From a virus (lineage: Duplodnaviria; Caudoviricetes): 64,000 bases of DNA. A model generated the notes under the pieces. It was given only the letters and a program-made list of their open reading frames with translations. It had not been told where the DNA came from and did not search any database. The stretch covers positions 50,332 to 114,331 of the IMG/VR virus record IMGVR_UViG_3300032280_000320; one strand, written 5' to 3'. The position numbers were made by a program, and so were the translations under genes. The first letter of the stretch is position 1. Each line of letters starts with the position of its first letter. Shown piece by piece: positions 1,570-61,801 of the stretch.

Positions 1570-3833
1570 ACCCAGGCCACCCTCTTTTGTATCCAGCCTC
1601 CAGATTCTATTACATCCATTGGAGTGGCTTTATGGTCTGCTGCTGCTGTTCCAAGTGCGCCACGTGTTTTAACACGATATCTTCCTGTTGGCTTAAAGTA
1701 TGCTGTTCCTAAAATGTTATTGATATCAACAAACCCTGGCTTTGACAGGGATACATATTTGTTTACATCGTTTTGTGATGCTATCCAAACAATATTTTCA
1801 TCATCATTAAAGTCAATAAATTGATACTCTAATGCATCAAATTCAATTACCTCTGAGTCAATAAGGAAGTATCCACTGAATGCAAATCCACTTTGATATT
1901 GGCTATAAGAATCTCCAACAGTATTATTATTTATTACCAATACGGTATTATCTGCTGGCGTGTCCTTTGATATGTCTAGCTTTAGTCCGCCTGCGCTTAA
2001 AAATGTTGTTGGTGCTTGGGCAAGCTTTGTCGCATCTCCAGTATATTGTGTTGGCACAATTGAATTCCATATAACCTTTACGTTATTTCCAGAAGCAATT
2101 TCTTCCTGGCTTAAAGAAATAATGTTTGGCAAAACTGATCCTTCTGGCTTTTCGTAAAAATTCCATACAGGCGTTGTTTGTGAATATATCTTGTCTCTTG
2201 TATAAAACTGCAAAACATTGTTCTGATCAAAAAATGCATTCATCTGTATGTCTCTGCATAGATCTTGAAGGTGTTCCCAAACTGTTTTTGAATCTGTAGT
2301 CCACCAATATCCTATTGTAGGGATTGAAGTATCTTTAATTATTATAGCACCTTTTGCGGATGTTTCTGTTACCATGTTTATATTATAGTTTGTAAATCCA
2401 ACTGAGTCTAGGAGTCTTCTAATTATTGCAGTTGCTGAATATGTCTCGCAAAGCATGTCTGGTGCAATTGATTCCATTAAATACTTTGCGCCATCTAGCG
2501 CAACTATGTCTGTCTCGCCAAAATTATTGATTGTCCAGCTATCCATATAATAAGATCCCTGTGGAATTTTATATTCTGTTGCGCCATCATATATTTTAAA
2601 GTGTGGTCTTAGTTCTGCATTTTTAAATGTGTATAAGAAATCAAAATCAGAAGGGCCACCTACAATACTTGTCCATGGCTTTTCTCTGTTATATGATCTA
2701 ATCATAACTTGGCTTTGGTTGTAGTTTGCCAGAGACAGAGAAAGTACGTTTGCCGAAAGCTTTCCTACTGGTAAGATATCACTCGAAGATGAGTTTGATG
2801 ATTCTTGTGACAAGCTAACTGCTGAGACTAGTGGGCTTATTTCCTTTACCCATCTTGCAGAAATTTCTATTAACCCCATAACACTTGTTCCGCCAGGATT
2901 TTTTGCAGTTAATGCAATTGATTTTATATACTTTGGGGCTCTGTAAATATTGTCAGTAAAATGAATCCAGTTTGTATCTGCTTCAGTGGGATATAAGGAT
3001 ACTTCTCCTGATGGGAAATTTGTGCTGAAGTTAGGCATTGTTCCTGACTTTACTGTTCCATCTTTATAGGTTATGCTAACTGTAACTTCGGATGGTAGTG
3101 CATGATTCTTATCAAATCTAATTAATATCTTATTTGCAATTGCTGCTTTTGTTTCTGGTATGGTGGCTACTCCAGCAGATGTTAGATAGCCAATCTTACC
3201 TATGTTCTTTTCTATAATAAATGAAGTACTTGATGGCACCTCTATAATTTTGCCGTTTGTGTTATATGCTGTGTCTGACATGCCAGTTATTGTTATTGTA
3301 TTGCCAGTTACAAATCCATGTGGCACCGTGGTTGTATATTTAACCTTATATCGTGTACCAGTATTTGATGCCTCCGCCTTTACAATAGGAACTGTAGTCT
3401 GTGAATACTTAATTGTTATTGTTGAGTCTTTGCCTTCTGGTGACAACCAATACTTGTAAAATGTTGAGGGGCCTGGGTAGTAAACTCTAGGTGTAGATAG
3501 ATTATAGTATATAGCTTTTGGATCCTTGTATATAAAATTAGTTCCATCCGTTGGTATAACAAAATACTTAACCCCAGAATTTAATGGGCGGAATGGCTTG
3601 ATGATAGAATCTACTGGGAAAAGCTTTTTATAGGGGTTAATTGATCCTTGCTTAAATCCATTTATGCCAGCAGTATATTCTGCATCTGTGTTTGAAGAAT
3701 AGACTGATATGTTATCTATCATTGTATTCATATTGTATTCTACTTCACAGCCAACTGATATATTGATTGATGATCTATTTTTTAATATTCCTGTTACGGC
3801 ATCTGTTTGTGCCTGTGTTGCAAGAGAAATCAT
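1566..3833 (-). CDS. Minor tail / baseplate hub-like protein (755 aa)
   Basis: Second gene after the TMP. Motifs QGSYYMDSW, DGAKYL and WEHLQDLCRDIQMNAFFDQNNVLQF resemble tail hub proteins; includes a TTTVPHGFVTGNTITITG beta-domain insert. Confidence 0.65.
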   Translation of the reverse strand: MISLATQAQTDAVTGILKNRSSINISVGCEVEYNMNTMIDNISVYSSNTDAEYTAGINGFKQGSINPYKKLFPVDSIIKPFRPLNSGVKYFVIPTDGTNFIYKDPKAIYYNLSTPRVYYPGPSTFYKYWLSPEGKDSTITIKYSQTTVPIVKAEASNTGTRYKVKYTTTVPHGFVTGNTITITGMSDTAYNTNGKIIEVPSSTSFIIEKNIGKIGYLTSAGVATIPETKAAIANKILIRFDKNHALPSEVTVSITYKDGTVKSGTMPNFSTNFPSGEVSLYPTEADTNWIHFTDNIYRAPKYIKSIALTAKNPGGTSVMGLIEISARWVKEISPLVSAVSLSQESSNSSSSDILPVGKLSANVLSLSLANYNQSQVMIRSYNREKPWTSIVGGPSDFDFLYTFKNAELRPHFKIYDGATEYKIPQGSYYMDSWTINNFGETDIVALDGAKYLMESIAPDMLCETYSATAIIRRLLDSVGFTNYNINMVTETSAKGAIIIKDTSIPTIGYWWTTDSKTVWEHLQDLCRDIQMNAFFDQNNVLQFYTRDKIYSQTTPVWNFYEKPEGSVLPNIISLSQEEIASGNNVKVIWNSIVPTQYTGDATKLAQAPTTFLSAGGLKLDISKDTPADNTVLVINNNTVGDSYSQYQSGFAFSGYFLIDSEVIEFDALEYQFIDFNDDENIVWIASQNDVNKYVSLSKPGFVDINNILGTAYFKPTGRYRVKTRGALGTAAADHKATPMDVIESGGWIQKRVAWV

Positions 3834-4309
3834 TATACTTCCTCCAGCGTCATTGATATTGTCCAGAAAGAATGTAATCCACGCTTTTGTAAGACTGCGG
3901 AAAATTCTGTAAACGAGACTGTATATACTTCTCCTGTTAAAGCTGTGTCTTCTGCGGCACCAGACTTTGCAAAATTTAATAGTATTCTAAATGTGCCCTT
4001 GCCTTCTTCGCTTGCATAAAATCTTCTTAGGTCTTCTGCACCAAGGTTTCCGTCTGCCGTATGTGTTCTTGTTGTGGGTAGCATATTCCAAGACATGCTA
4101 AATGTTTTTTTGTCAGCAATAAAAAATTTTCTAAGGGTTCCGTTAGCCATTCTTTGAGTTTGTTGGATTCTATTTGAGCCTACAGTTATTTCTGATCTAT
4201 TGTGATCAGATATTTTTAGCCAAGTTAAAGTGGTGCCTGGGACAGTAGCAAGAACATCCTTGCCTTCTATTTGTAACCCTACACCTTTAGGTAATTTTGT
4301 ATAACCCAT
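3833..4309 (-). CDS. Distal tail (Dit)-like protein
   Basis: 158 aa immediately after the TMP; RMANGTLRKFFIADKKTFSMSW motif and a C-terminal MTLEEV typical of such tail proteins. Confidence 0.6.
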   Translation of the reverse strand: MGYTKLPKGVGLQIEGKDVLATVPGTTLTWLKISDHNRSEITVGSNRIQQTQRMANGTLRKFFIADKKTFSMSWNMLPTTRTHTADGNLGAEDLRRFYASEEGKGTFRILLNFAKSGAAEDTALTGEVYTVSFTEFSAVLQKRGLHSFWTISMTLEEV

Positions 4310-7300
4310 TATGCTTTAACCTCCAATCCACTTCCTAGTGATCTACTTTCTCCCATAGATTTAACTGATATCTTGCTCATTGTCTTTATAGACTCAACTG
4401 TTTTTCTTGTAACCATGTCAGACAGTGCATTTATGTCACCATCATATCCATTAATATTATTTGTAATATTATATACGCCTCCACCCATTGTAGCATTATT
4501 AGCGTTTGGATTAAAGGGGTTCATATTAGCAGGAACTACTGCTTCATTCTTATGAAGCATGGCAAGCATGTTTGCTGGGACGTTATTTATACCAGTTTCA
4601 AATCTAGGGATATTGAATTTGCCTCCACTTAAGTATCCCCCAGTTGCACCAGTAATTCTTTTACTTTGAAGACCCGCAATTTGGGCAAGCTTTGCATCCA
4701 TTTCTGTACCAGATATAAATCCTCTAGCATATTGATTTATAATAAACTCCTGCATTGCTTTAAGGTCACTTGGATTTGGGTAAGTCTTTCCGCTTTCATA
4801 TTTACCAAAACGTGTCCACATTAAAAGTGCATCTAAAGCTTTTGTTGCTGTGGTGGTTCCAGTATTGGGAGTACCTACTGAAGTTTTATATTCATTTAAA
4901 AGATATGTAAACGGATTGCTTCCAGATCCTTTTGCCAGCATATCTAAGTCACCACTGTTATGGCCTCCATCAAATCTTACTCCAAGCTTAGAGGCTACTT
5001 CTTGAATTACATCTTGATTTAAAGAATGATGCTCACCGCCGACAGCGTATAAGTATGGCTGATCTATTCCAATTTGTTTTTTTGCTTTATCTATTGCTAT
5101 TATCTGTAGGGCTCTTTGGGCACTCATAGGAGTATCAACCTCATAAGAACTTCTTGCTGGCATGTAGAGATCTTGATTGCCAAACACTCTTTCATGATTT
5201 GGCCTAGCCCTCATAGCGTCGTCTACTTGTGCGGCAGGTCTTAAATTACTATTTTCGTTAATTTCTTTTAATATTTGATCAAGCTCTGACTGGGAATATT
5301 TTTCTTTTGCTAAGTAAAATATTTCTTTTGTTGAAGGGTTTTCTGCCATTATTGGCAGCGGGTCTCCTTGTTTATATAACCCAAGCTCTGTTAATCTTTT
5401 AATATAGGCTGATTCTTCTAAAGGAAATACTGAACTGAGCTGCCCTTCTTTTTTACTATACTTAAATGGTTTCCCAAATTTTTGTAAGAAAAAGCTGTCG
5501 ATTGAATGAAGCTGTTCTGGCTTACCGTTATATTTCATTAAATTAGAAAGTGTACTTACTATAAACGGCTTGTCTGGCTTCCAAGATCCCTGAAAATGAG
5601 ATTGAACTGCATCATAAATTCCAAAGTGCCTTGATGTTCTAGCAACAGCATAATCAGCAGCTTTATCAGTTCCAGCAACAGAGCCTTTGGGTCCTACAAA
5701 CCTATCAAATATTTTAAATCCTGCAGCAGTTTCTAGAAGGTCTCCGCTGGCATCTGCTGTTGGGAACTCTTCATTAAACACTCTTATCATTGGAATATCG
5801 TCTGGTGTTGGTGGAGCATAGGGGTCCATTCCTCTTGCTCTGTAAGCTGCAATCTCTGCTCTAGTTAGAGGAACTTCTCCACGGAATCCATGGAAACCTC
5901 CCTTTACTCCACCAGCACGTTCTGTGGCTGCTGCAATTAATGCGGCTTGCTCTTTGGCATTCTCTGCATATTCTTTTGCTGATCTGGCAAGTATCGGTGA
6001 CATTGCTTTTGTTTTAGTTCTAATAGCAATATCGTCTTTTGCGCTACCAAGAGTTGCAGAAATCAATTGAGTAAGTCCTGCTGAATCTAGAGAGGTTGCA
6101 AGCTCTGGCATTCTTAGATCTTGGCCCAGCATGCTGATAGGGAGTAGGTCTGTATCTATTTTCCTTAAATTTATGCTTCCTGCCGCTAGCATGTTCATTA
6201 AAAATTCTCTTACCTGTTTGTCATCCCACTTGTTATTATTCATCTTGTCTAACAAAATTTGAGCTTTTTTATTTTTTGGATCTTTTTTCAAAATATAAGA
6301 AAGTATTCCTTCGGGTGTTGTTGGTATAATATCAGAAACCTGATGATTTGTTAATAGGGAGCCAAGGTTTTCATTTGTGCCTTGGAAAACAACGGCATCG
6401 TTACCAAAAGGCCCTCCTGAATGTAATGGTACTTTATTTCCTTCATGAACTACAAATGGCGGATAATTATTATTTGGTTTCATCTGCTCTGCAGTTGCAG
6501 TTATTTTTGGTTTTTGAATTACTGAAGCTACTCTATTTTCAACAAATGGCCTTGCTGCACCGATTACTGCAGCAGTTGCTGCATTTGTTGCAATCTTTGA
6601 TCCAGATGCTCCAAGGAATGGTATCGAACCCTTTGGCAATAAGTGGCCAAGGTTTGGAATTCCTTTTGCTGCGCCAAATCCCTCAACTATAGATCTCATA
6701 AGTGCATTTCCGTTTGCCCCGCCAACCCTAGCTAAGGCAACATTTATTGCTGCGGTTAGGTATTCTCCTTTAGCCCAATCCCTGCCATCTTGGTAACGCT
6801 GAGCTCCTCCTGCTCCGACAAGGGCGGTGAGTAGAATATTTTGCATTTCGGTATGTATCGGACCACCAGGATTATTTCCCCCAATGGCTGCTGTCCAGTT
6901 TTTACTTGTTGTAAATGTTTCCCATAGAGATGGAGGGTTTTTTACCCATTCACCATTTTCATTTTTATAATAGTTGCCATCCTTCTCATAAAATTTGTCG
7001 GTTGCTTTAGAGTTTGCTGCAGCTCTTGCTGGACTTAATGCACTCATGCTTGGACCTGAATAAGGTGCTTTGTAACTGCTTGCCATATGCCCTGGACTCA
7101 AATGCTTATGTCCTACTAGTCCGCCTTTATGGAAACCTAGCCCAGATTTAATTTTCTTAAATAGCTTACTCCAATTAACAACTGAATGCATGGATCCACC
7201 AGATACCATTGTTCCCTGATTGCCAACAATTTCTCCGCCGCCAACCAGCATGCCTCTACTCCAAGAGTATTCATGGTTTTCAGGAATATAATCTGGATAA

Positions 7301-10300
7301 ATTGTTTTATATTTATCTGGTAGGAACAGCTCCGCTCTTCTATTTTTAGCTTTGTTTTCAGAAGTTGTATTTGGAACAAGAGGTCTATATTCGCCATATC
7401 CTACTGGAGTGAATGCTGTGCCAGGAACAAACTTTGACATATATTCTGCAATAGCATTTGCTCTATTTTGTGAAAGGATCTTGTTGTCTTTTTCTTTACC
7501 TACAGAGTCTGTGTGTCCTTGAACAACTATTGATGCTAGCTTATGCTTAATAAGATCTTTAGCAATTTTTTGAAGCTCTAGTCTTTGCTCTTTATTTAAT
7601 GTGTAAGAATTTGTATCAAAATTAGCTGTGATAGGCGGAACTTCAATTTTAACAACCTGCTTATTGGCATCTTGCCATGCTTCTATTGGGCCCATTAGTT
7701 TTCCGCCTTGTTCGACTCCCTCAGTTGTCGATCCATGCCTATGTCCTACAGGCCCGCCTTTATGTAGCCTTTGAGCATTTAATTTATCAAAAAAATTAAC
7801 TCCATATTGCTTTACAGCTTTTTCTTTAATTACATATTCACCATTTGAAAGCATGGCTGGAATAGAATCAGATGTTCCAGTTCCTGGACCAGATACTTTT
7901 CCTCCTGGCTCAAAATACTTTACCTTACCGCCCTTATTATATGAAACTACTTTTTTATCCCAAGGATTGCTAGCGTAATTTTCGCTTGCCCATCTACCAA
8001 TTATTTTTCCATTTTTATCGGTTACTCTACCATCTGCTGTGTAGGTATATCCAGTTTTTGGATCAATATAATCTTTAAATTTATTACGACCATCTTCTTC
8101 TCTGATAGTAGTTCCACGTTTAGTTGGATCTGGGTGCTTAAATGATTTATACTGGGCTCCTCCTGGAGTATCCTCTGCAGGTTTAGGCATAAAGAATCTT
8201 TCACTTTCTTTATAAACTTTACCAGATGAATCTATGTACTGTCCAGTTTTCTTATCAAAAGTTAATTTTATTGGTGCTCCCTTTGCATTAGCAAAGGCAT
8301 TAGCTTCTCCTACTTCTGGTAATCCTAGTAGCTTTTTGACATACATTCCAAATGAATCTACGTGTTCTCCAAAGCCATCAAAATATTTTTCTGCATATTC
8401 TACAGCTGAGTTACTTGCTCCACCAGGATCATTAGTTATCTTTTTTAGATATGTGAGCCAATCAGCTGAACCAGGCTGCTGGAAACTTAATCCCTTTGGA
8501 CCAGTAACTGTTTTTCCTGCTGTTATTGGAACACCAGCTGTAACTGTTTTTGCTGCAGCCGCACCTTCTGAATTTATTGCAGCTAACGCTGCTACGTCTG
8601 ATTGTAGTGCTTTTGCCAAGGTGCCTAGAACACCCTCATCTGTTGTCATTCCAGCTTTTGATATAGTAGTTGCAATACTTTGCTGTAGGGCCTGTATTGA
8701 TGCATATTCTTTTTGCTTAATGTTAGCAATTTCTTGTAGCTTGTTTGCTTTCTCTTGAAGCTTAATAAGTCTCTCTTGAACTGCAGCTTTTGCTTCTTCA
8801 AGCTTTTTAACTTCTGCATCTCTTTTATCTTGGATTGCATCTATTGATAATGTTTTTTGTCTTTCGTTTGTTAGACTTTGTATATTAAGCTGTGACTGCG
8901 CTGCACGTGACATATCTCCAGCTAACAATGCTTGCTGGTAATTTAGTTGCTCTTTTTGTACCTCTGTTAAATAATCTTGCTTTTCTGCTTGATCTTCAAT
9001 AGCACGTATTCTTGCATCTGCTTCTTCGTTGATTTTTTCTATCTTTTTGTCGAGAGCCTTTATCTCTGCATCTGCATTCTTTTGAGCATTCTTTGTTGCA
9101 TCGTCTGAGGCTTTCTTTGCTTTATCGTATGCAAGTTTTGCTGCTGTTCCATAATCTGCAATTGCATCAATTGGGTTATTTAATAAGTTAGCATTTGTAG
9201 TCATTTCAGATGCAGCTTGTGAAATTGCTGTCACTACCTGTAGCAAATCTTGTGCTTCTTGTCCGCTTAACCCTGATAGATTAGCAGTTACGCCATTTGT
9301 ATAAAGCTGTATTTTTGCCCATGCATCAACCATACTGTCATTTGAATTAAGTATATCTTTGTATAAAGGATTTTCTTTTACAAGAAGATTTAATATGTCA
9401 TCGCCAATATCTTTTTGATTATTCTTATTTGCATTCATTTGCTCTATTGTGTCATTTAGAGCTTCTGTCTGTGTCTTTGCTTTTCCAGTCTCATCTTTTA
9501 TTCCAACTAGGCTTTGGTAGTATAGCTGTATTGCATCTAGCCCGCCGCTAAATGAGGCTGCTATTTCTTTTTTGTCTACGTCTGCGCCTTCAATTGATTT
9601 AACAAATGTCTCTATTGCTACTCTTGCTGCGGATGCTCTGTCTACTACTCTTAAAAATTCTGATGAGGATACAGCTGCCGTTGCCTGAGCAGCTTTATTT
9701 GAAACAGATATAATGCTGTAAATTTCTTTTGCAGCTTCTTGTGCTGATTTTCCTGCTGCAACTAGCTGAACCTTGAGTGCTGTTGCTGCTTTTGTAACGT
9801 CATTTTCATCAAGGTTATTAAACATCTGTACGATGTCACCTTGTGTTTCTTTAGCTTTCTTTTGTAGAGCATTAAGTTCTTTTACAGACATATTGATTCC
9901 GCCGCCTATAGCGGTAGATCCAGCAGCCTTAATCTTTGCTAACTCTCCCTGTGCCTTTGCAGCTTCTGTTGCTTTTTTAATTTTGTCTGTCAGGCTTGTG
10001 TATGTTATGCCAAGTTGTTTTGCTTGTATTTCATTTACATCTAATGCTTCTTGAGAAGCAAGTCTTGCTTTTCTTGCATTCTCCCATGCTCCATAAGAGA
10101 CTGTTGCAAGTGTTGTTAATGCAAATATTGCAACCTTACCCCAACCAGGAATTGCTTTGCCAGCAGCATTAAGCTTTCCTAAAGTTTGACCAAACTTGCC
10201 AACGTTTCTTTCTGCTGCAACAGCTGCCGTTGCTTCTCCTACAGCACCTCCTGCTTTGGCGGCTTTAGCAGTTTTTATACCTTTGTAAATTGATCCAGCA

Positions 10301-13300
10301 GTCATTACTGCAAATATTCCATTTAGAATAAGGTTTGATTTTTCGCTGGCGATTCCCAACTTCTCTAAAGCTTTTGGCAATAGCATAAATGCAGCTAGTG
10401 GTAAAGCTTGCTGTGCAACAACACCTGCAACTGGACCTAGTGCTCCATAATTATATTTTCCACTTTTAATCATTCCTCCCAATGCATGGTTAGGAACAAT
10501 ACCTCCACTGTTCATAGGAACAAATAGTTCTGGTCCCTTTTCTCCAACTATGTAAGGTGTGCCACCAGATACAGGTCCGCCTTTTTCTCTAGCCTCTAAG
10601 CCAAATATTAATTTCTTTAACTCTTCTGTTAATGGAGTATCTTTTCTTGATTCCCAGTTTGTATATCTTCTTTTAAGTATATCTCTGTCTATTGCAGACA
10701 ATACCTTTCTTCCTTCTGGTGCGGAAATTGTAGAAGATGCAGCTGATCTAATAACTGAGTCCATAATATCTGGCTCTAGTGCTTTTAGTAATTGTCCTTG
10801 TGCATTTTTAGAATAGCCATAAGGCATTTCTTTTGCAAGTGCTTCTGCAAACTTGTCATAAAGAATTCTTTGTGCTCTCTTTGTTAATCCGCTAGAAGCA
10901 AATAGCTTTTCTGCCATTCCTATTTCTAGTGATGTTACTCCCCATCCGCCAGTTGTATTCTTTCCAAATCCCGCTCCAATTCTACGCATAGCAAGAGATT
11001 TAATAACATTGATTAATCCACCACCATTAAATCCATTAGCATCAGATTTAAATTCCATATCACTTAAGCTTACAGCGTGGCCCTTTTGTCTTGCTCTTAA
11101 TGCTGCAGCTTCTTCTAATTTAGCAAGTGCTGCTGGCGTCAATGATTTTGGAGCACTTGGCTTAACTGCTGCATGTATGCCGTGAAGTTCTTTCCAGTTT
11201 ACATGCCTTGCATCTTCAAGCCTTCTTATCATTGCAGCATAAACTTCTTCTTCTCTTGGAGTTAGACCTTTAAAGCCAGCAATTGTTTCTTTTAGTCTAG
11301 GAAGGACCTCATCAATTTCATTAAGCATTGATTGCTGATATTGCTGAGGAGTCATTCCTCTTGGAATGTCTACTGTTGATTCTGCAAAGAATCTTTTTGC
11401 TCCGCCCTTTACGCCAAGTAAATTAATTCTTGCTTGTTCTCCAACTGATGGCATATCGTCTGCGTATGATCTCAGACCAGAAGCTGTTTTAAATACACCC
11501 ATAGTTCCGCCATCTGCAACAAAACTTCCACCAATGTTACCAGGTGATAAATCTTTGTCTCCTCTTAATGCTGATGCGAGTAGCTGTTGGAAGTACTCTT
11601 GCTCTGACATTTCTTTTGGCAAGCTTGCAAATCTTGGGTCATAAGGTGATTCAAGAACAAGGAGTTTTCTTTTGCCTGCTGGATCTGTTGGGTCTATCAT
11701 TACCCTTATTTCCTGCTGAGGTGTTGTTAATCTATGTGCTCCTTGGTGTATTGCATTATATCTTTGCTCAGCAAGTGCAGCAGTTTCATCAAGGACTGGC
11801 TTAACAAATACTCTTGTTCCGTCTGGCTTTGTGTATACTCCGCCCACTCCTTCGACTGGGAAGCTGTGACCTTTTGTATCTTCTTCTTTCTTTCCAAAGT
11901 TAGTTGGTTCTTCTTTTGCAAAACGACTCTTGTTTACTGCTTCTGTCGTCTGCTCCATAACCTCTCTACGTTTTCTTTGCTCTTGAACCTGCTTAATTGA
12001 TTTAGGCATTCCAAGAAACAGTCTGCCGTAGTTTCTTTTCTTCTTTAAAATAGGTCCGCCCATTGCAAATTCTTCAAATTCATCAAGCTGCATATGGGCA
12101 AAAGCTCCACGCTCACCATTAACTGTCATTCCTTTAGGATTGTATGATTCATAAGAACCCATGAAGTCTGTTCCGAATTCATCATTCTTTGCAATTAATT
12201 CATCTACGCTTGTTGTGCCATAAGGATTTATTCCTGTGGCAGCTTTAAATCCAGATTTAGTATCTCCTGGTTTACGGAATGCTCTTCTTTGTCCAGGTAT
12301 ACCTAAAGACCTAATATATTTCTTTCTTAAACCTAATCTCTTTGCTATCTCTAGATATACATCGTGTTGTGCTTTTGCAAATAATTTTTCTCCAATTAAT
12401 GTATCACCATGTGCTTGGAAGTTCCCTACAATTTTATCTCTTGCTTCTAAAACTAATGAGTCTGCCATATCGTCATCTATTTTATTTACCTTTAAGAATC
12501 TTCTTAGTGCTGGTAGCGCTTCTGAAGGAGGGAGTGACATTATGTCATCTATTATTTCTTGTGGCTTGGCTGTACTACTATTTATTTTTGAGTTTGTTGT
12601 TTTTCTAGTATTGAGTCCCCAGTTACCAACAAAGAAATATCCAAATGGATTTTTAAGTGTGCGTTTTACTGGTGCTGCTGCTCCTAGTGTTTCATCAACA
12701 AATTTTTGAGCATTAGATCCAGAAGTTGCAACTCTCTTACCCATCTTCATTATTGGAGACAAAAGATCTTCTGCTGCATCTGTAACAGCCTTTGGCAACT
12801 TAACTCTTCCATAATTGTGCTTACCAGAAACAATTGGTCCACCTAAAATTCCGCCTGCATTTCTAAATTGAATTCTTTGTCCGTTATTTGCCGCCTCTAA
12901 TATAGGCAACATCTCTTGTGTTTGTTCTGGTGTAAATACTGTCTCATATGGAGTCAGCATTGCATCAATCATTCCGCCACGATTATATGGCTTAGTCTTT
13001 TTTGCATATTCAACTAGCTGTGGATTATTTCTTGTTGCATCTTGATTTAATACAAAACCACCAACTGGTATTTTTGCCATTGTATTGTCATAGTTTACAC
13101 TCTTGTCACCAGGTACAACTGGGCCATCTTCTAATGTGTATACATATCCACCATCATTAAACCCTCTAGATGGACCTCTTTTTGGAAGAATAATTCTTGG
13201 CTTAGTGGTTTCTATACTATAGCCTCCGCCTGACGTTCTAACTCCTAAGCCTCTTGCAACATCATCAACAAGTGCTGCGGTTTCTGGCTTATGGAACATT

Positions 13301-15906
13301 TCTTTCATGTTTGATTTACCAGTTACTGGATCAACTACTGGCTGGCTAGTAAATGGTACTGTTGTTAAATTAATACTTCTTCCCATACCTGCTGCAACTT
13401 GTGCCGCAGTCTCTGCCATCATTATTTCAATTGTTGCATTAAGTGAAATTATTCTTGCTCTAGCTTGCTCTACAGTTATTACACCTTGCTGTAGCTGTCT
13501 TACAATCATTGCTCCTTCATCAGCCGCCAATGAAGTAAGTTGTTGCATTTGTGGAAGCATCTGTTGATAAACTGAGGATAACTCATGTGTTACTGTTCCA
13601 GTTGCTGCTACTTCCGTTTTTAATAATGTAAGTTCTGCTTGAGACTGGGTTGCAATAGCTGCTGTCATTGCATGCCATTTAGCTGCTTCTGTTGCGACTA
13701 TACCAGTTGACACTCCGCTAATAGATGTAACTCCAGGAATTCTTGGTAAATCCTCATTCATATACATCTGTGGGTTATTGCTTACTCTAACATTTACTGG
13801 ACCTGGGTTTGGAACAACACCAAATATTGTTCCTGGTTGTTCTATTGCTGTAGGAATAGTGTGTGCAAACTGTCTGCTAAATGGGGCACCTATAAACCTG
13901 CTATCTTTATCTGCCATTCTGTCTGCATTTGCTGCAGCTCCTGCTGGAGATAGGATTGTTGATCCGCCCATTGTACTTATGCTTGAGCTTGTTGCAACTG
14001 CTGAATTTAATGCACTTGCCTTTAATCTATCAAATGATGCAGCAAGATTATTAACTGCTGTTTCTAATGCTATTGCAGCCTGTGCATCACTAAAGAAAGA
14101 TTTTTCTACAACCTTACCAGCTTCTGCAGCTGCCATCATTTCTGGTGTTAATAATTTAAATCCTGATCCACCCTTAAATAATTGCTTTAGATGGAATACG
14201 CCCTTGATAATATATCCAAGGAAGTTTCCAAGAACACCAGTAAGCATGATAAGTGGTCCTGCAAATGCTGTTAATCCACCAAGGAATGTTAACAGTGACT
14301 TAATTGGCCCTGGTAGATTTTCTACAAACTTAATAATTCCGCTGATTGTTTTTAATACAAATGTGCTTATCTTTAAGAACTGATCACCAACACCTGCAAG
14401 TTCTGCCTTAATTGTTTCAAGTGCTCTTTTATATTGTCCAGATGCAGACTCTGTCATAGCCTTTAATTCTCGGTCTGCAATTCCTGCTAGCTCTTCAGTG
14501 CTTGCCTTCATCAAATCTAATACTTGTAAAGTCTGTGACCCTTCTTTACCAAGGTTATTAAATAGAGCTCCCATACGAGCAAACTGGAACTTTCCAAAAA
14601 GCTGTTCAATTGCCTGAGCCTTTTGTAGTGGATCTAGCTTATCTAGTGATGCTTGAAGTGCTAATATTGTTGCAGTTATATCTCCAGCATTATTCTTTAC
14701 AATTGATCCAAGATCAATTCCAAATCCCATAAACATTTCTCTTGCAACTTTAGTTGGGTTAATAAGTGATGCGAGAGATGACTTAATAGCGTTAGCACCT
14801 TCTGATGCATTTACTCCGCCTTCTTTCATTGCAGTTAAATAAAGAGCAAGATCTTGAACGTCTCCGCCAAGTGATTGGATTACTGGTCCTGCTTTTGGAA
14901 TTGCTTCAACCAAATCTGCAAGCGATGTTGATGTCTGGTTTTCAACTGCGTTTAGGAAGTTAATTGATCCTGCTAGCTCTTCGTTGCTTTGCTTAAATGC
15001 ATTTTGAATAGCAAGTGTTGCTTTCATTGCATCTTGTCTATCTACTTCACCAAGAATAGAAAGTCTTGTTGTTTCTTGTGTTGATACAAGAAGATCATTT
15101 CCTTGCTTACCAGTTGCTGCAATATCCGCTGCTAATGCGATTGTTTCTTTATATGATGCACCGTAGATAGATGCTAATTCTTTCGCTGTCTCTTCGACAT
15201 CTTTTCTAACTTGCTTTAGCTCTGCAGAAGATGTTTCTGCTAGACCGCCATAAACCTTTGTTAATCTAACTAGCTGTTGGTCTGCTTCTAAGAATGCTTT
15301 TTGTGCTGCTGCACCAAATGCCATCATTGGGACTGTTAGTCCAACTGTTAGCTGACGTCCTGCCCACTGTGTATTTTTACCCCAGTTAATAAGCTGGTTA
15401 GATCCATCAAGCATTACCTTGTTAAGAATTGATGCTTCTTGTCTTAATAAAGCAGTTCTATTCTTTAAAACATCTAGTCCATTTGCTACGTGGACATTGT
15501 ATTGCATTTGCCCCTGGGCATTTCTTCCCAGGGGTTGCATTACGGCTTGTTCCATTAATACTTGCTGCTTAGCAAGATCTTTAATTAATGTGCTTGTTTT
15601 TCTTGTGTGTCCTTGCCAGACTCCGAAGTACTCGCCAAGTTTCATTCGGCCAGTATCTAGCCTCTTTCCAAACTTCTGTACATCAGATTCAAGTGTTACA
15701 AAGTGTGAAGAAAACTGTCCAGTTGCTCGCATTGTGTCGGCAAATGAACGATTCATTCGGCCTACTTCATTTGATAGATTTCTATCTAATCCAATGGTTG
15801 TGGCTTGTAGTTTAATTAACTCGGCGGTTACGGCTCTTAACTGCGCTGTTAAACTTGTAAAGTTTGCCGTCGCAGTTATGTTCGTATTAATATTTTGTTC
15901 AGCCAA
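4309..15906 (-). CDS. Giant tape measure protein (3,865 aa) with embedded cargo domains (kinase-like, OmpA-like)
   Basis: Follows the tail chaperones. TP901-type TMP core (GRQLTVGLTVP...AVENQTSTSLADLVEAIPKAGPV...EGANAIKS), long Ala/Lys/Glu helical tracts, and TMP-type motifs GGPVSGGTPYIVGEKGPELFVP and GPGTGTSDSIPAMLSNGEYV. Confidence 0.9.
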   Translation of the reverse strand: MAEQNINTNITATANFTSLTAQLRAVTAELIKLQATTIGLDRNLSNEVGRMNRSFADTMRATGQFSSHFVTLESDVQKFGKRLDTGRMKLGEYFGVWQGHTRKTSTLIKDLAKQQVLMEQAVMQPLGRNAQGQMQYNVHVANGLDVLKNRTALLRQEASILNKVMLDGSNQLINWGKNTQWAGRQLTVGLTVPMMAFGAAAQKAFLEADQQLVRLTKVYGGLAETSSAELKQVRKDVEETAKELASIYGASYKETIALAADIAATGKQGNDLLVSTQETTRLSILGEVDRQDAMKATLAIQNAFKQSNEELAGSINFLNAVENQTSTSLADLVEAIPKAGPVIQSLGGDVQDLALYLTAMKEGGVNASEGANAIKSSLASLINPTKVAREMFMGFGIDLGSIVKNNAGDITATILALQASLDKLDPLQKAQAIEQLFGKFQFARMGALFNNLGKEGSQTLQVLDLMKASTEELAGIADRELKAMTESASGQYKRALETIKAELAGVGDQFLKISTFVLKTISGIIKFVENLPGPIKSLLTFLGGLTAFAGPLIMLTGVLGNFLGYIIKGVFHLKQLFKGGSGFKLLTPEMMAAAEAGKVVEKSFFSDAQAAIALETAVNNLAASFDRLKASALNSAVATSSSISTMGGSTILSPAGAAANADRMADKDSRFIGAPFSRQFAHTIPTAIEQPGTIFGVVPNPGPVNVRVSNNPQMYMNEDLPRIPGVTSISGVSTGIVATEAAKWHAMTAAIATQSQAELTLLKTEVAATGTVTHELSSVYQQMLPQMQQLTSLAADEGAMIVRQLQQGVITVEQARARIISLNATIEIMMAETAAQVAAGMGRSINLTTVPFTSQPVVDPVTGKSNMKEMFHKPETAALVDDVARGLGVRTSGGGYSIETTKPRIILPKRGPSRGFNDGGYVYTLEDGPVVPGDKSVNYDNTMAKIPVGGFVLNQDATRNNPQLVEYAKKTKPYNRGGMIDAMLTPYETVFTPEQTQEMLPILEAANNGQRIQFRNAGGILGGPIVSGKHNYGRVKLPKAVTDAAEDLLSPIMKMGKRVATSGSNAQKFVDETLGAAAPVKRTLKNPFGYFFVGNWGLNTRKTTNSKINSSTAKPQEIIDDIMSLPPSEALPALRRFLKVNKIDDDMADSLVLEARDKIVGNFQAHGDTLIGEKLFAKAQHDVYLEIAKRLGLRKKYIRSLGIPGQRRAFRKPGDTKSGFKAATGINPYGTTSVDELIAKNDEFGTDFMGSYESYNPKGMTVNGERGAFAHMQLDEFEEFAMGGPILKKKRNYGRLFLGMPKSIKQVQEQRKRREVMEQTTEAVNKSRFAKEEPTNFGKKEEDTKGHSFPVEGVGGVYTKPDGTRVFVKPVLDETAALAEQRYNAIHQGAHRLTTPQQEIRVMIDPTDPAGKRKLLVLESPYDPRFASLPKEMSEQEYFQQLLASALRGDKDLSPGNIGGSFVADGGTMGVFKTASGLRSYADDMPSVGEQARINLLGVKGGAKRFFAESTVDIPRGMTPQQYQQSMLNEIDEVLPRLKETIAGFKGLTPREEEVYAAMIRRLEDARHVNWKELHGIHAAVKPSAPKSLTPAALAKLEEAAALRARQKGHAVSLSDMEFKSDANGFNGGGLINVIKSLAMRRIGAGFGKNTTGGWGVTSLEIGMAEKLFASSGLTKRAQRILYDKFAEALAKEMPYGYSKNAQGQLLKALEPDIMDSVIRSAASSTISAPEGRKVLSAIDRDILKRRYTNWESRKDTPLTEELKKLIFGLEAREKGGPVSGGTPYIVGEKGPELFVPMNSGGIVPNHALGGMIKSGKYNYGALGPVAGVVAQQALPLAAFMLLPKALEKLGIASEKSNLILNGIFAVMTAGSIYKGIKTAKAAKAGGAVGEATAAVAAERNVGKFGQTLGKLNAAGKAIPGWGKVAIFALTTLATVSYGAWENARKARLASQEALDVNEIQAKQLGITYTSLTDKIKKATEAAKAQGELAKIKAAGSTAIGGGINMSVKELNALQKKAKETQGDIVQMFNNLDENDVTKAATALKVQLVAAGKSAQEAAKEIYSIISVSNKAAQATAAVSSSEFLRVVDRASAARVAIETFVKSIEGADVDKKEIAASFSGGLDAIQLYYQSLVGIKDETGKAKTQTEALNDTIEQMNANKNNQKDIGDDILNLLVKENPLYKDILNSNDSMVDAWAKIQLYTNGVTANLSGLSGQEAQDLLQVVTAISQAASEMTTNANLLNNPIDAIADYGTAAKLAYDKAKKASDDATKNAQKNADAEIKALDKKIEKINEEADARIRAIEDQAEKQDYLTEVQKEQLNYQQALLAGDMSRAAQSQLNIQSLTNERQKTLSIDAIQDKRDAEVKKLEEAKAAVQERLIKLQEKANKLQEIANIKQKEYASIQALQQSIATTISKAGMTTDEGVLGTLAKALQSDVAALAAINSEGAAAAKTVTAGVPITAGKTVTGPKGLSFQQPGSADWLTYLKKITNDPGGASNSAVEYAEKYFDGFGEHVDSFGMYVKKLLGLPEVGEANAFANAKGAPIKLTFDKKTGQYIDSSGKVYKESERFFMPKPAEDTPGGAQYKSFKHPDPTKRGTTIREEDGRNKFKDYIDPKTGYTYTADGRVTDKNGKIIGRWASENYASNPWDKKVVSYNKGGKVKYFEPGGKVSGPGTGTSDSIPAMLSNGEYVIKEKAVKQYGVNFFDKLNAQRLHKGGPVGHRHGSTTEGVEQGGKLMGPIEAWQDANKQVVKIEVPPITANFDTNSYTLNKEQRLELQKIAKDLIKHKLASIVVQGHTDSVGKEKDNKILSQNRANAIAEYMSKFVPGTAFTPVGYGEYRPLVPNTTSENKAKNRRAELFLPDKYKTIYPDYIPENHEYSWSRGMLVGGGEIVGNQGTMVSGGSMHSVVNWSKLFKKIKSGLGFHKGGLVGHKHLSPGHMASSYKAPYSGPSMSALSPARAAANSKATDKFYEKDGNYYKNENGEWVKNPPSLWETFTTSKNWTAAIGGNNPGGPIHTEMQNILLTALVGAGGAQRYQDGRDWAKGEYLTAAINVALARVGGANGNALMRSIVEGFGAAKGIPNLGHLLPKGSIPFLGASGSKIATNAATAAVIGAARPFVENRVASVIQKPKITATAEQMKPNNNYPPFVVHEGNKVPLHSGGPFGNDAVVFQGTNENLGSLLTNHQVSDIIPTTPEGILSYILKKDPKNKKAQILLDKMNNNKWDDKQVREFLMNMLAAGSINLRKIDTDLLPISMLGQDLRMPELATSLDSAGLTQLISATLGSAKDDIAIRTKTKAMSPILARSAKEYAENAKEQAALIAAATERAGGVKGGFHGFRGEVPLTRAEIAAYRARGMDPYAPPTPDDIPMIRVFNEEFPTADASGDLLETAAGFKIFDRFVGPKGSVAGTDKAADYAVARTSRHFGIYDAVQSHFQGSWKPDKPFIVSTLSNLMKYNGKPEQLHSIDSFFLQKFGKPFKYSKKEGQLSSVFPLEESAYIKRLTELGLYKQGDPLPIMAENPSTKEIFYLAKEKYSQSELDQILKEINENSNLRPAAQVDDAMRARPNHERVFGNQDLYMPARSSYEVDTPMSAQRALQIIAIDKAKKQIGIDQPYLYAVGGEHHSLNQDVIQEVASKLGVRFDGGHNSGDLDMLAKGSGSNPFTYLLNEYKTSVGTPNTGTTTATKALDALLMWTRFGKYESGKTYPNPSDLKAMQEFIINQYARGFISGTEMDAKLAQIAGLQSKRITGATGGYLSGGKFNIPRFETGINNVPANMLAMLHKNEAVVPANMNPFNPNANNATMGGGVYNITNNINGYDGDINALSDMVTRKTVESIKTMSKISVKSMGESRSLGSGLEVKA

Positions 15907-49412: not shown

Positions 49413-50402
49413 TTAAGAAAACTTTTTAAAAATATGATCAAATGAATTTTCAGTTAACTGCAACCAGTTGTATTCTTCATGAATCTTAGTCGACTGAGCA
49501 TAATAATATCCTGAGTAAGCGTTGTAATCTAAAACAACATCTCTCATAAGCTCAAGTAGGTGTTGATAGTTTGGTTCAAAAACTAATCCTGGTAAATTTA
49601 AAAATGGTGACTGAGTTAGTTTTGATTTTAAAGAAAGTGGACCTATAAATTTTTTATAATCTGCCCAAGCAGAAGTACAAATTGTTGGCATACCAGTTGC
49701 TAATGCCTGAAGTGGAATGAAACCAAATCCTTCTCCATAACTAGGGTAAACTAAAACGTCATGATCATAATAAAGTTGAAGTAGTTGACTTTCTGTAAAC
49801 TCTTCTGTTATAATATTAATATTATTATATATATAATTAGGTAAACCTATTATTTCTTTATCTATATAATTATTATATACTCTAGTAGTATTATTATGAT
49901 ATGCTTTAATAGTTAAAGAGTAAGAAGGATTGTTTCCGTATAATTGTGTGAATGCGTTAACAACCATCTGTCCAGCTTTTCTTGGTGCTGGCTCTCCAAC
50001 ATGTAAAAACTTAATAACACCATCAGGTTTTCTCCTGCGTGGTTTCCAAACATCGCTTATACCATGATTGTAAACATGTATTGGTTTTTTTAAACCAGCA
50101 TCTTCAAATACTTGTGCATTCCATTCAGATGTTGTCCACATTTCATCAACATGATCTGCAATCGGAAACCAGTTAGATGGAACTACGGTTGACTCCCAAG
50201 GGGTATATCCTATTTGATATTGTCCCCTGTGCATCTTAAATTGATTTGGTTGTGCAAAATTAACTTGTACTTCAGGTTTACTGTTTGAATAAAGTACTTC
50301 ATGGCCTAGATCTTCTAGAGACTTTTTTATGTTTAAATAAGCAGAATTATACCCACCAGCATTTTTAATGTGAGTTGTAGGCGTAAATAGAGATATTTCC
50401 AT
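49413..50402 (-). CDS. Glycosyltransferase, GT-B / GT4 family
   Basis: FLHVGEPAPRK...DVLVYPSYGEGFGFIPLQALATGMPTI. Confidence 0.88.
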   Translation of the reverse strand: MEISLFTPTTHIKNAGGYNSAYLNIKKSLEDLGHEVLYSNSKPEVQVNFAQPNQFKMHRGQYQIGYTPWESTVVPSNWFPIADHVDEMWTTSEWNAQVFEDAGLKKPIHVYNHGISDVWKPRRRKPDGVIKFLHVGEPAPRKAGQMVVNAFTQLYGNNPSYSLTIKAYHNNTTRVYNNYIDKEIIGLPNYIYNNINIITEEFTESQLLQLYYDHDVLVYPSYGEGFGFIPLQALATGMPTICTSAWADYKKFIGPLSLKSKLTQSPFLNLPGLVFEPNYQHLLELMRDVVLDYNAYSGYYYAQSTKIHEEYNWLQLTENSFDHIFKKFS

Positions 50403-53324: not shown

Positions 53325-53337
53325 TTTAACCTCCTTG

Positions 53338-53412
53338 TAGGGATACTGGGATTTGAACCCAGAATCTATTGTATATAAGACAAGTGCTTTAACCAGATTA
53401 AGCTATATCCCC
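53338..53412 (-). tRNA. tRNA-Ile (anticodon UAU)
   Basis: GGGGATA acceptor pairs with TATCCCT; D-arm AGCTTAATCTGGTTAAAGC; anticodon loop CT-TAT-AT in stem TTGT/ACAA; T-arm CTGGG-TTCAAAT-CCCAG; CCA not encoded. Confidence 0.85.
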
Positions 53413-61572: not shown

Positions 61573-61645
61573 GGTTCGTTAGCTTAGTGGTTAAAGCGCT
61601 ACCCTGTCACGGTAGAGATCATGGGTTCAAATCCCATACGAATCG
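61573..61645 (+). tRNA. tRNA-Asp (anticodon GUC)
   Basis: GGTTCGT/ACGAATC acceptor; CTACC-CT GTC AC-GGTAG anticodon arm; ATGGG-TTCAAAT-CCCAT T-arm; CCA not encoded. Confidence 0.88.
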
Positions 61646-61801
61646 CAATAAATATTTATGCATAAGTGTGCATAAATATTCGCCCGCAATGTTAAGGGAA
61701 AATTTTTTGTGTTACGGATCACATAAAAAAAGCCCTGAAAAGTATAGACAGATGTCAGTGGGGTCCGCTATAATACTCCTATACAAACGAAAGAGGTAAA
61801 A

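Follow-up and report, generated by a model that had tools for sequence, protein, structure and literature searches.

A predicted protein-kinase-like domain family embedded in phage tape measure proteins

Introduction

To our knowledge, the destination of the siphovirus tape measure protein (TMP) and its role after ejection are still largely unknown. A conserved enzyme that requires ATP would, if found in a TMP, predict that this part of the protein is exposed to the cytoplasm. The question arises for a 64,000-nucleotide stretch of DNA from a tailed virus (positions 50,332 to 114,331 of the IMG/VR record IMGVR_UViG_3300032280_000320; we call this whole stretch the window), in which an initial annotation had placed a HipA/PI3K-like kinase domain inside the TMP. 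Is there a kinase in this protein, what kind of kinase would it be, and where would it act?

Our answer, drawn from predicted structures, is that TMP residues ~1304-1610 appear to represent a previously unclassified family of the protein-kinase-like fold. On the strength of the models we regard the kinase fold itself as close to certain. Phage proteins with kinase-fold domains have been described, and so have TMPs with enzyme modules; in the main texts of the literature on tape measure and kinase, we found no description of a conserved kinase-fold family embedded in TMPs. We believe that the family is worth defining because it is large (at least 670 clusters) yet unannotated, being absent from the cultured phage records, Pfam, NCBIfam and PHROGs that we searched. 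The gene and the module lie in the window as follows.

4309..15906, minus strand: TMP gene (protein P0001), an open reading frame (ORF) of 3865 amino acids (aa) with a TTG start, from the ORF list and its translation
11077..11997, minus strand: kinase-fold module, residues ~1304-1610 in the AlphaFold2 (AF2) models, with an N-terminal helix, a bilobal core and a C-terminal helix

The span first proposed for the domain, 11165-11860 (TMP residues 1349-1581), falls within this module, but the confidently modelled part is somewhat larger, at 11077-11997.

Conservation of the catalytic residues

The initial annotation had been built on four kinase motifs, and all four were found in-frame and in the order claimed on the minus strand of ORF 4309..15906.

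11800-11850, minus strand: GVGGVYTKPDGTRVFVK, Gly loop to beta3 Lys, residues 1353-1369
11764-11778, minus strand: ALAEQ, residues 1377-1381
11533-11577, minus strand: ASALRGDKDLSPGNI, catalytic loop, residues 1444-1458
11506-11520, minus strand: VADGG, residues 1463-1467

The bare motifs are not beyond chance. When the protein was shuffled 2000 times, a loose regular expression that keeps the order and spacing of the motifs found one or more matches in 220 of the shuffled versions, which is unconvincing taken alone. We reject a chance match because the catalytic residues are conserved and a kinase fold is predicted.

For conservation we used an alignment of 131 rows, made of the window copy and 130 of the 150 listed representatives (the remaining 20 were left out as their match did not span query positions 30-255). 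Invariant in 131/131 rows are G1346, S1348, G1356, K1369, E1380, P1396, Q1441, N1457, D1465 and Y1556. Near-invariant are D1452 and L1453 (130/131 each), G1467 (128/131) and Y1358 (127/131), and there is further conservation at D1450 and R1448 (125/131 each), G1353 (106/131) and G1355 (104/131). The residues that the initial annotation had picked are among the most conserved across the 131 aligned copies. Their places in the window and in the AF2 model are given here.

11833..11850, minus strand: Gly-rich loop G1353-V-G-G-V-Y1358, between the first two N-lobe strands and before model strand 37-40
11800..11802, minus strand: K1369, the beta3 lysine, a predicted contact of the ATP phosphates; 131/131, on model strand 46-51
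11767..11769, minus strand: E1380, the alphaC glutamate, predicted partner of K1369; 131/131, on model helix 55-70
11536..11559, minus strand: catalytic loop D1450-K-D1452-L-S-P-G-N1457, after model helix 116-129
11506..11514, minus strand: D1465-G-G1467, the metal-binding Asp motif (DFG equivalent), right after the short strands 139-140 and 143-144

The catalytic set is complete, with K1369, E1380, D1452, N1457 and D1465 all present, and its conservation has the appearance of purifying selection. Because all five residues are near-invariant we favour catalysis, and we think it quite probable that the module is active, with ATP and Mg binding and phosphate transfer predicted.

One position of the catalytic loop does vary. 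Residue 1454, whose equivalent is His in HipA and PI3K and Lys in canonical kinases, is S in 55, Q in 28, G in 22, A in 12, K in 8 and H in 4 of the 131 rows. The Ser in place of His had been taken as a reason to doubt activity. The Ser is indeed there, but the doubt is weakened by the variability of position 1454 and by the five near-invariant core residues. Since the position varies across the 131 rows, Ser1454 is a trait of the family and not a lesion of this copy.

Predicted fold and structural neighbours

An AF2 model of residues 1320-1602, made from a 44-sequence alignment, was bilobal with a pLDDT of 95.9 and a pTM of 0.91. The N-lobe starts with three strands (K1369 is on the third, 46-51), followed by helix 55-70 with E1380 and two more strands. 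Onward from there the model has helix 116-129, the loop from D1452 to N1457, two short strands, D1465-x-G1467 and a helical lobe, with the C-lobe helices at 169-260 after the D-x-G motif. In the model K1369, E1380, D1452, N1457 and D1465 appear to sit on the elements expected of a kinase. The features by which we recognise a protein-kinase-like fold are all there: the bilobal fold, the beta3 Lys and alphaC Glu, the catalytic Asp-x4-Asn and the DFG-equivalent Asp.

A Foldseek comparison with the PDB, which the initial annotation had proposed as a check, gave 18 matches at E<=1e-3. All of the matches listed are kinases, including JNK, IRAK4, BAK1, a Leishmania MAP kinase and CtkA. The opposite outcome, a fold unlike that of kinases, was not seen: AF2 and the structure searches alike give a kinase fold.

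A structure search independent of Foldseek covered 48,161 chains (VIA), and the best 50 chains listed are all kinases or kinase-fold proteins by title. At the top is CotH with a Z of 11.8 (219 residues aligned, rmsd 3.9), followed by PI4KIIalpha (10.3), MavQ (10.1) and Fam20C (9.5), and next come CtkA (9.4), Golgi casein kinase (9.3), HipA (8.8), Vps34 (8.7), actin-fragmin kinase (8.2) and the Rio kinases (~7). In reading these values, a Z below 8 can reflect a common arrangement, and rows within about 1 Z are tied. The top matches have a Z above 8, cover most of the domain and belong to one single fold.

For a second comparison, the 1000 best Foldseek chains were re-aligned. Here 36 chains reached Z>=8, after which there is a drop, the next entry being RioK1 at 6.8. 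The 30 listed at Z>=8 are CtkA, PI4KII, LepB, PI4KIIIbeta, Vps34, HipA, Golgi casein kinase and a bacterial Ser/Thr kinase, as well as entries with the non-descriptive title 'MDT protein'. In the re-alignment CtkA scored 10.7, the N-terminal fragment of LepB 9.7, and HipA, PI4KIIIbeta and Vps34 9.0. The HipA alignments (Z 8.8-9.0, with 189-193 residues aligned) are a likeness at the level of the fold only. Canonical kinases such as PknB and CDK1 had a Z of 6.5 or less among the re-aligned chains. A canonical Hanks-type kinase was rejected as a candidate on its Z of 6.8 or less, against 8-11.8 for atypical kinases.

The models thus place the domain in the atypical branch of the kinase fold, with CotH and not HipA or PI3K as the nearest solved structure. 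For the initial annotation this means that a kinase fold in the TMP and its atypical grouping hold up, but the HipA/PI3K-like label is too specific for a list with CotH at the top and HipA in the middle. Its statement that the motif arrangement defines HipA/PI3-4-kinase-like atypical kinases is too narrow. A Gly loop with Lys, Glu, D-x4-N and D-x-G is a signature of the protein-kinase-like superfamily in general.

Sequence searches

At the level of sequence families the segment had next to no matches. Pfam at E<=1 gave solely a Bestrophin-like match (E 0.23, far below the cut-off) and thus no match to the HipA families, PF00454, PF18640 or PF08757. PHROGs gave 0 families, and NCBIfam gave solely a Nudix model at E 0.19. 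A phmmer search with the segment against PDB sequences returned 0 matches at E<=10, and so did the family profile, which with 875 positions includes the flanks and is not a clean domain profile.

The catalytic loop also differs from those of the named families. That of HipA has the motif D-x-H-x-x-N, and in our alignment His stands at position 1454 in 4/131 rows. The catalytic motif of PI3/PI4-kinases is G-D-R-H-x-x-N; the loop here is G-D-K-D-L-x-x-x-N with no conserved His, and there is no PF00454. A sequence match to the CotH family (PF08757) is likewise lacking in Pfam at E<=1, despite the best structural Z of 11.8. In a language-model comparison the nearest neighbours were unnamed bacterial clusters (0.96). 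The named ones, which we treat as leads only, were LepB_N (0.93), PI3_PI4_kinase (0.92, for 19% of the cluster) and HipA_2 (0.91, for 46%).

Distribution among tape measure proteins

How widespread is the module? In an HMMER scan that covered 1.84 billion representatives, 165 proteins matched at E<=1e-3, and 139 of these did so at E<=1e-30. Among the 150 homologs listed, 113 are long (at least 2000 aa). A word-indexed search, limited to proteins of 2125-6764 aa and with clusters at 90% identity, found 670 proteins at E<=1e-3 among 3861 candidates, which puts the module in at least 670 TMP clusters. That the carriers are TMPs is indicated by PF10145 in 115 of 120 listed homologs and by source names of the type 'TP901 family phage tail tape measure protein'. 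A few of the listed homologs also have OmpA, or CHAP and LysM, and their longest contigs are ~120 kb. The domain starts at about residue 745-770 in most homologs, directly after the TMP core, and at about 1346 in the window protein.

We followed BLASTP coverage along P0001 for the 113 long homologs. Residues 51-550 are covered in 95-100 of them and residues 1301-1550 in 101-113, the latter being high by construction as the homologs were chosen for having the domain. A short motif near residues 2651-2700 is common to ~50/113, and nearly all other stretches to 2-16/113. Besides the N-terminal core, the kinase module is the sole widely shared part of these TMPs.

A profile search for stand-alone forms at near lengths, in which shorter proteins were not searched, gave 45 matches, all apparently TMP pieces and many of them on short contigs. 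A single-protein prophage search of genome contigs found none. A profile search of GTDB genomes yielded a single locus of 53% identity, which lies on a contig of 85 kb and has a G+C of 42-44%. The submitter label of the contig is an uncultured Bifidobacterium MAG (metagenome-assembled genome), which we treat as unreliable and give little weight because of the G+C of the locus.

What follows the kinase-fold domain differs among relatives. In the most divergent ones, P0150 and P0151, a HAD-type phosphatase domain comes directly after it: Acid_phosphat_B in P0151 (residues 436-562, E 1.2e-6, above the cut-off) and HAD_PNKP in P0150 (residues 1642-1775, E 2.5e-4, below the cut-off). Such a pairing of kinase and phosphatase within one TMP may point to the class of substrate. 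When the 400 aa following the kinase domain were compared across 129 homologs, those of 90 fell into a single BLAST cluster and make up a conserved companion module; it is missing from the window's own subfamily (20/129). Pfam gave no name for the post-kinase stretch in the relatives P0006, P0009 and P0129, of which P0006 is a member of the companion-module cluster.

Limits of the module and its flanks

A second AF2 model, of residues 1285-1800 (516 aa), had a mean pLDDT of 73.6, and in it the kinase core was still confident. Its confident residues 20-325 correspond to P0001 1304-1609, and it adds an N-terminal helix at ~1304-1325 and a C-terminal helix at ~1591-1610. After the C-terminal helix there is a low-confidence linker and then a small helical module. 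Residues 1586-1800 are 60-98% identical in 10 representatives, and their middle is missing in P0005, P0007 and P0010. The features on either side of the kinase module are these.

12004..12060, minus strand: linker motif GGPILKKKRNYGRLFLGMP, residues 1283-1301, just upstream of the module
10603..10923, minus strand: small helical module downstream of the kinase, subfamily-specific, residues ~1662-1768, AF2 pLDDT ~70-80
14197..14286, minus strand: hydrophobic segment, predicted to insert into a membrane, residues 541-570, Kyte-Doolittle (window 19) 1.6-1.8
10378..10434, minus strand: second hydrophobic segment, weaker and a hydropathy prediction only, residues 1825-1843, Kyte-Doolittle 1.63

The letters 'FLGMP' before the kinase are conserved in the consensus of the family alignment. 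Gly-Gly motifs bracket the modules, with GGPIVSGKHNYG at residue 1022, GGPILKKKRNYGRLFLGMP at 1283, FNGGGLINV at 1628 and GGMIKSGKYNYG at 1810; those at 1022 and 1810 are GG..NYG motifs that resemble GGPILKKKRNYGRLFLGMP. Linker motifs of this kind recur along the TMP (residues 919, 977, 1022, 1283, 1628, 1776-1810, 2659-2717, 2928 and 3756) and take the forms xNxGGxV, GGPI..K.NYG and GG..GPG..SD.IPA.LS.GE.V. PHROG TMP families match at 1766-1812 and 2667-2716, and the motifs at 2689-2717 and in the C-terminal stretch 3762-3842 are common to the TMP of Streptomyces phage Wofford (see the next section). The Gly-Gly linkers may serve for processing or as hinges.

The tape measure protein and its phage

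An uncultured siphovirus of 114 kb, a relative of Streptomyces phages, is the source of ORF 4309..15906, which is its TMP. The protein has a PF10145 (PhageMin_Tail) domain at residues 239-438 (E 9.2e-25, 88.1 bits against a cut-off of 33.2 in Pfam), and among its 13 matches in PHROG, 11 bear the annotation 'tail length tape measure protein'. Its identity as a TMP is further seen in the position of the gene and in the hydrophobic segment 541-570. Upstream on the same strand are genes for a portal, a head maturation protease, a major head protein, an adaptor and an Ig-domain protein, together with small ORFs; by synteny a tail chaperone is among the genes preceding the TMP gene, and a minor tail protein gene lies downstream. 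Two further domains of the protein are located as follows.

14593..15192, minus strand: TMP core domain PF10145, residues 239-438, Pfam
7339..7620, minus strand: OmpA-like peptidoglycan-binding domain, residues 2763-2856, PF00691, E 4.7e-18

The source virus record is 114,331 bp long in IMG/VR, with a CheckV completeness of 100%. Its portal is 55-58% identical to those of Streptomyces phages of ~127-134 kb (BillNye, Circinus, StarPlatinum), and 127 of 301 records matching the portal are Streptomyces phages. TMP residues 1-700 have 33-35% identity with the TMPs of these phages. Gene order is identical in Streptomyces phage Wofford (Stanwilliamsviridae), whose TMP is 2084 aa long. BLASTP between P0001 and the Wofford TMP is collinear, with blocks at 172-627/124-586 (39% identity), 2260-2394/1261-1450, 2689-2717/1650-1678 and 3762-3842/1994-2075, and the hydrophobic segment 541-570 is aligned with the equivalent segment in Wofford. 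Because of this collinearity, we read the window TMP as a Wofford-type backbone with large insertions, the kinase-like segment being in the first of them.

Elsewhere in the phage genome, outside the window, there is a WhiB-like gene (G000:C1:15679-15852, minus strand; PF02467, 41.9 bits, above the cut-off). WhiB is typical of actinobacteria and their phages. Because of this gene, the relatedness to Streptomyces phages and the window G+C of 34-42%, the host was probably an actinobacterium of lower G+C. The window also has phage tRNA genes for tRNA-Ile (anticodon TAT) at 53337-53412 on the minus strand and tRNA-Asp (GTC) at 61573-61646 on the plus strand.

Toward the C-terminus of the TMP, about 850 residues (~2900-3750; window 4309-7200, minus strand) have no family match in Pfam or PHROG and are common to just 2-10 of the 113 long homologs. 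They may be further unclassified cargo. In place of the OmpA-like domain, the TMPs of relatives have CHAP and LysM.

Proposed function

The reading that we prefer is that the TMP carries this kinase-fold family as an ATP-dependent phosphotransferase that acts at infection, and we consider it evenly balanced between being right and being wrong. The same holds for its central part, that the module acts in the newly infected cell, on which we lean to neither side. If the module is active, a protein substrate seems somewhat the better guess than a lipid.

The analysis itself establishes that the protein is a TMP, that the segment has a kinase fold with conserved catalytic residues and that the module is widespread in TMPs. 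The mechanism would run as follows; that the module is catalytic and is in the virion, and its topology, timing and substrate, are all things that we infer. The TMP would be held in the tail tube in an extended, non-native state and be expelled ahead of the DNA at infection. The hydrophobic segments at 541-570 and ~1825-1843 would insert into the host membrane, and the stretch between them, which includes the kinase module, would refold on the cytoplasmic side, where ATP is present. There it would phosphorylate a host target before phage genes are expressed, much as the initial annotation had imagined for host defence or translation proteins, with protein Ser/Thr likelier than lipid. If this is true, the list of enzymes that phages bring in with their DNA would extend to a kinase carried in the tail and not in the head.

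Several points weigh against this reading. A folded domain of 250-300 aa is too large for the lumen of a tail tube, so unfolding and refolding, or else proteolytic removal, would be required. ATP is absent outside the cell, and activity at entry therefore requires exposure to the cytoplasm. The membrane topology derives solely from hydropathy. The closest structural match, with CotH, is to an assembly kinase, and this favours a role in morphogenesis. Position 1454, occupied by His or Lys in other kinases, varies here, and the spacing from N1457 to D1465 is just 8 residues, shorter than in the kinases familiar to us. The Foldseek TM-scores are low (0.20-0.36). There is no sequence-level link to any characterised kinase in Pfam, NCBIfam, PHROGs, or the phmmer and profile searches of the PDB, and when the 131-row profile was compared with E. 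coli HipA by hhalign the probability was 0.17%, a weak test as the template was a single sequence. Finally, tblastn against 50,697 phage records gave no match, so the domain is in no cultured phage record among them.

Suppose instead that the module works in the producer cell, as a morphogenetic kinase that phosphorylates the TMP or tail proteins during tail building. Phosphorylation could help the giant TMP to stay soluble or extended, or make it ready for ejection, and the module may be removed by cleavage before the virion is complete. ATP is present during assembly, and when folded the module is too big for the tube lumen. The recurrent GG linkers that flank the modules could be processing sites. 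The top structural match, CotH (Z 11.8), patterns a proteinaceous structure according to PMC7821199. What speaks against this explanation is that at least 670 clusters have the module in-frame as part of the TMP, not as a separate gene, and that Wofford makes its long tail with a TMP of 2084 aa in which the module is lacking. We think a morphogenetic role unlikely. A lipid kinase, to which we give the same low standing, would act where the phage enters, by phosphorylating the head group of a membrane lipid such as phosphatidylinositol, and so remodel the membrane for the channel or for DNA passage. PI4KIIalpha (10.3), MavQ (10.1), LepB (9.7) and PI4KIIIbeta and Vps34 (9.0) are, by our figure, within about 1.5 Z of the best match, but protein kinases do equally well or better (CotH 11.8, CtkA 10.7, Fam20C, HipA). 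The nearest named language-model clusters, LepB_N and PI3_PI4_kinase, point to lipid kinases; there is nevertheless no PF00454 match, and the DRH motif of PI3/4-kinases is absent, the family having D-K-D-L and a variable +2 position. The module does lie between two hydrophobic segments of what would be a membrane-inserting protein, in an actinophage-like genome (WhiB at 41.9 bits, portal 55-58% identical to Streptomyces phages), and phosphatidylinositol is abundant in actinobacterial membranes. This last argument presumes an actinobacterial host, which is itself something that we infer.

In its most ambitious form, the lipid explanation would make the TMP a device that inserts itself and brings a phosphoinositide-kinase-like enzyme to the cytoplasmic side of an actinobacterial membrane, where the enzyme phosphorylates phosphatidylinositol or a membrane-bound host protein and opens or stabilises the DNA entry channel. 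We find this distinctly improbable. If true, phages would have their first virion-borne lipid kinase, and there would be direct evidence that a siphovirus TMP reaches the cytoplasm with one of its central parts. The kinase fold could also serve some other chemistry, such as transfer of AMP or another group, or be a pseudokinase with a structural or binding role. The reaction does not follow from the fold, and SelO and SidJ are kinase-fold enzymes that transfer AMP or other groups; the catalytic-loop +2 residue is not conserved, and the invariant G1346, S1348, Q1441 and Y1556 have no assigned role. However, Lys, Glu, Asp, Asn and Asp are kept in 130-131 of 131 rows, as catalysis predicts and unlike a scaffold, and pseudokinases typically lose some of their catalytic residues. 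We hold this to be the least probable of the explanations. The preferred reading remains an ATP-dependent phosphotransferase acting at infection.

Comparison with known systems

The best structural match is the spore-coat kinase CotH (PDB 5jda; PF08757), which, like the module, is tied to a large proteinaceous assembly. CotH has an atypical kinase-like fold with two catalytic Asp, D228 and D251, according to PMC7821199. The two share 6% identity in the structural alignment, and the module has no match to PF08757. CotH is also a free-standing bacterial or eukaryotic protein, whereas here we have a module of a phage tail protein.

MavQ and LepB are Legionella effectors that are delivered into another cell. 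With PI4KIIalpha, MavQ and the N-terminal domain of LepB the module shares a structural likeness (Z 10.3, 10.1 and 9.7), but it is without PF00454, PF18640 and the DRH motif. The toxin kinase HipA and CtkA of Helicobacter pylori are in the same atypical branch of the kinase fold as the module (Z 9.0 and 10.7). The invariant S1348 in the loop before the Gly-rich motif recalls, as we take it, the regulatory P-loop Ser150 of HipA; among the structural neighbours are entries whose titles name HipA(S150A) and HipA(D309Q). HipA differs in that its residues before ~121 are without a counterpart in the alignment ranges.

Among viral structures in BFVD, the top matches are long phage proteins (A0A6B9L6W7, A0A6J5PWC9, A0A6J5MJB0, R4T6E8 and A0A4D6E245), with sources that include Mycobacterium and Gordonia phages and a haloarchaeal tailed virus. 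One match is a protein of Mycobacterium phage Onyinye named ADP-ribosyltransferase (E 7.9e-6). Others are 'PI3-/4-kinase catalytic domain containing' proteins of uncultured Caudovirales and proteins of the Gordonia phages GodonK and Sixama, and some are uncharacterised. Their identity to the module is 11-18%, none is named a TMP, and there is no BLAST-level similarity to phage records. Judging by these models, kinase-fold modules in giant virion-associated proteins may be commoner than annotated.

The kinase gp0.7 of phage T7 is expressed from an early gene and is a component of neither the virion nor the tail. It phosphorylates host proteins early in infection and is cited as a precedent in PMC5512222. 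That paper (Iyer et al. 2017) deals with the polyvalent-protein kinases of phages and plasmids, for which entry together with the DNA and modification of host proteins are proposed and which, like our module, are kinase-superfamily domains within huge multidomain phage proteins (PMC5512222). They are described as having lost the whole C-terminal subdomain (PMC5512222), but the module has a helical C-lobe and so is not one of them. The words 'tape measure' do not occur in PMC5512222.

TMP-related effectors of actinobacterial contractile injection systems offer another parallel. In Sle1, a globular domain is proposed to fold after ejection, and, as in the window protein, a TMP scaffold is combined with a globular functional domain; the word 'kinase' is absent from this source (PMC13277306). 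Peptidoglycan-directed domains are further modules of these TMPs, OmpA in the window protein and CHAP and LysM in its relatives. The known cargo of TMPs is cell-wall-directed or uncharacterised, and here it has a predicted kinase fold.

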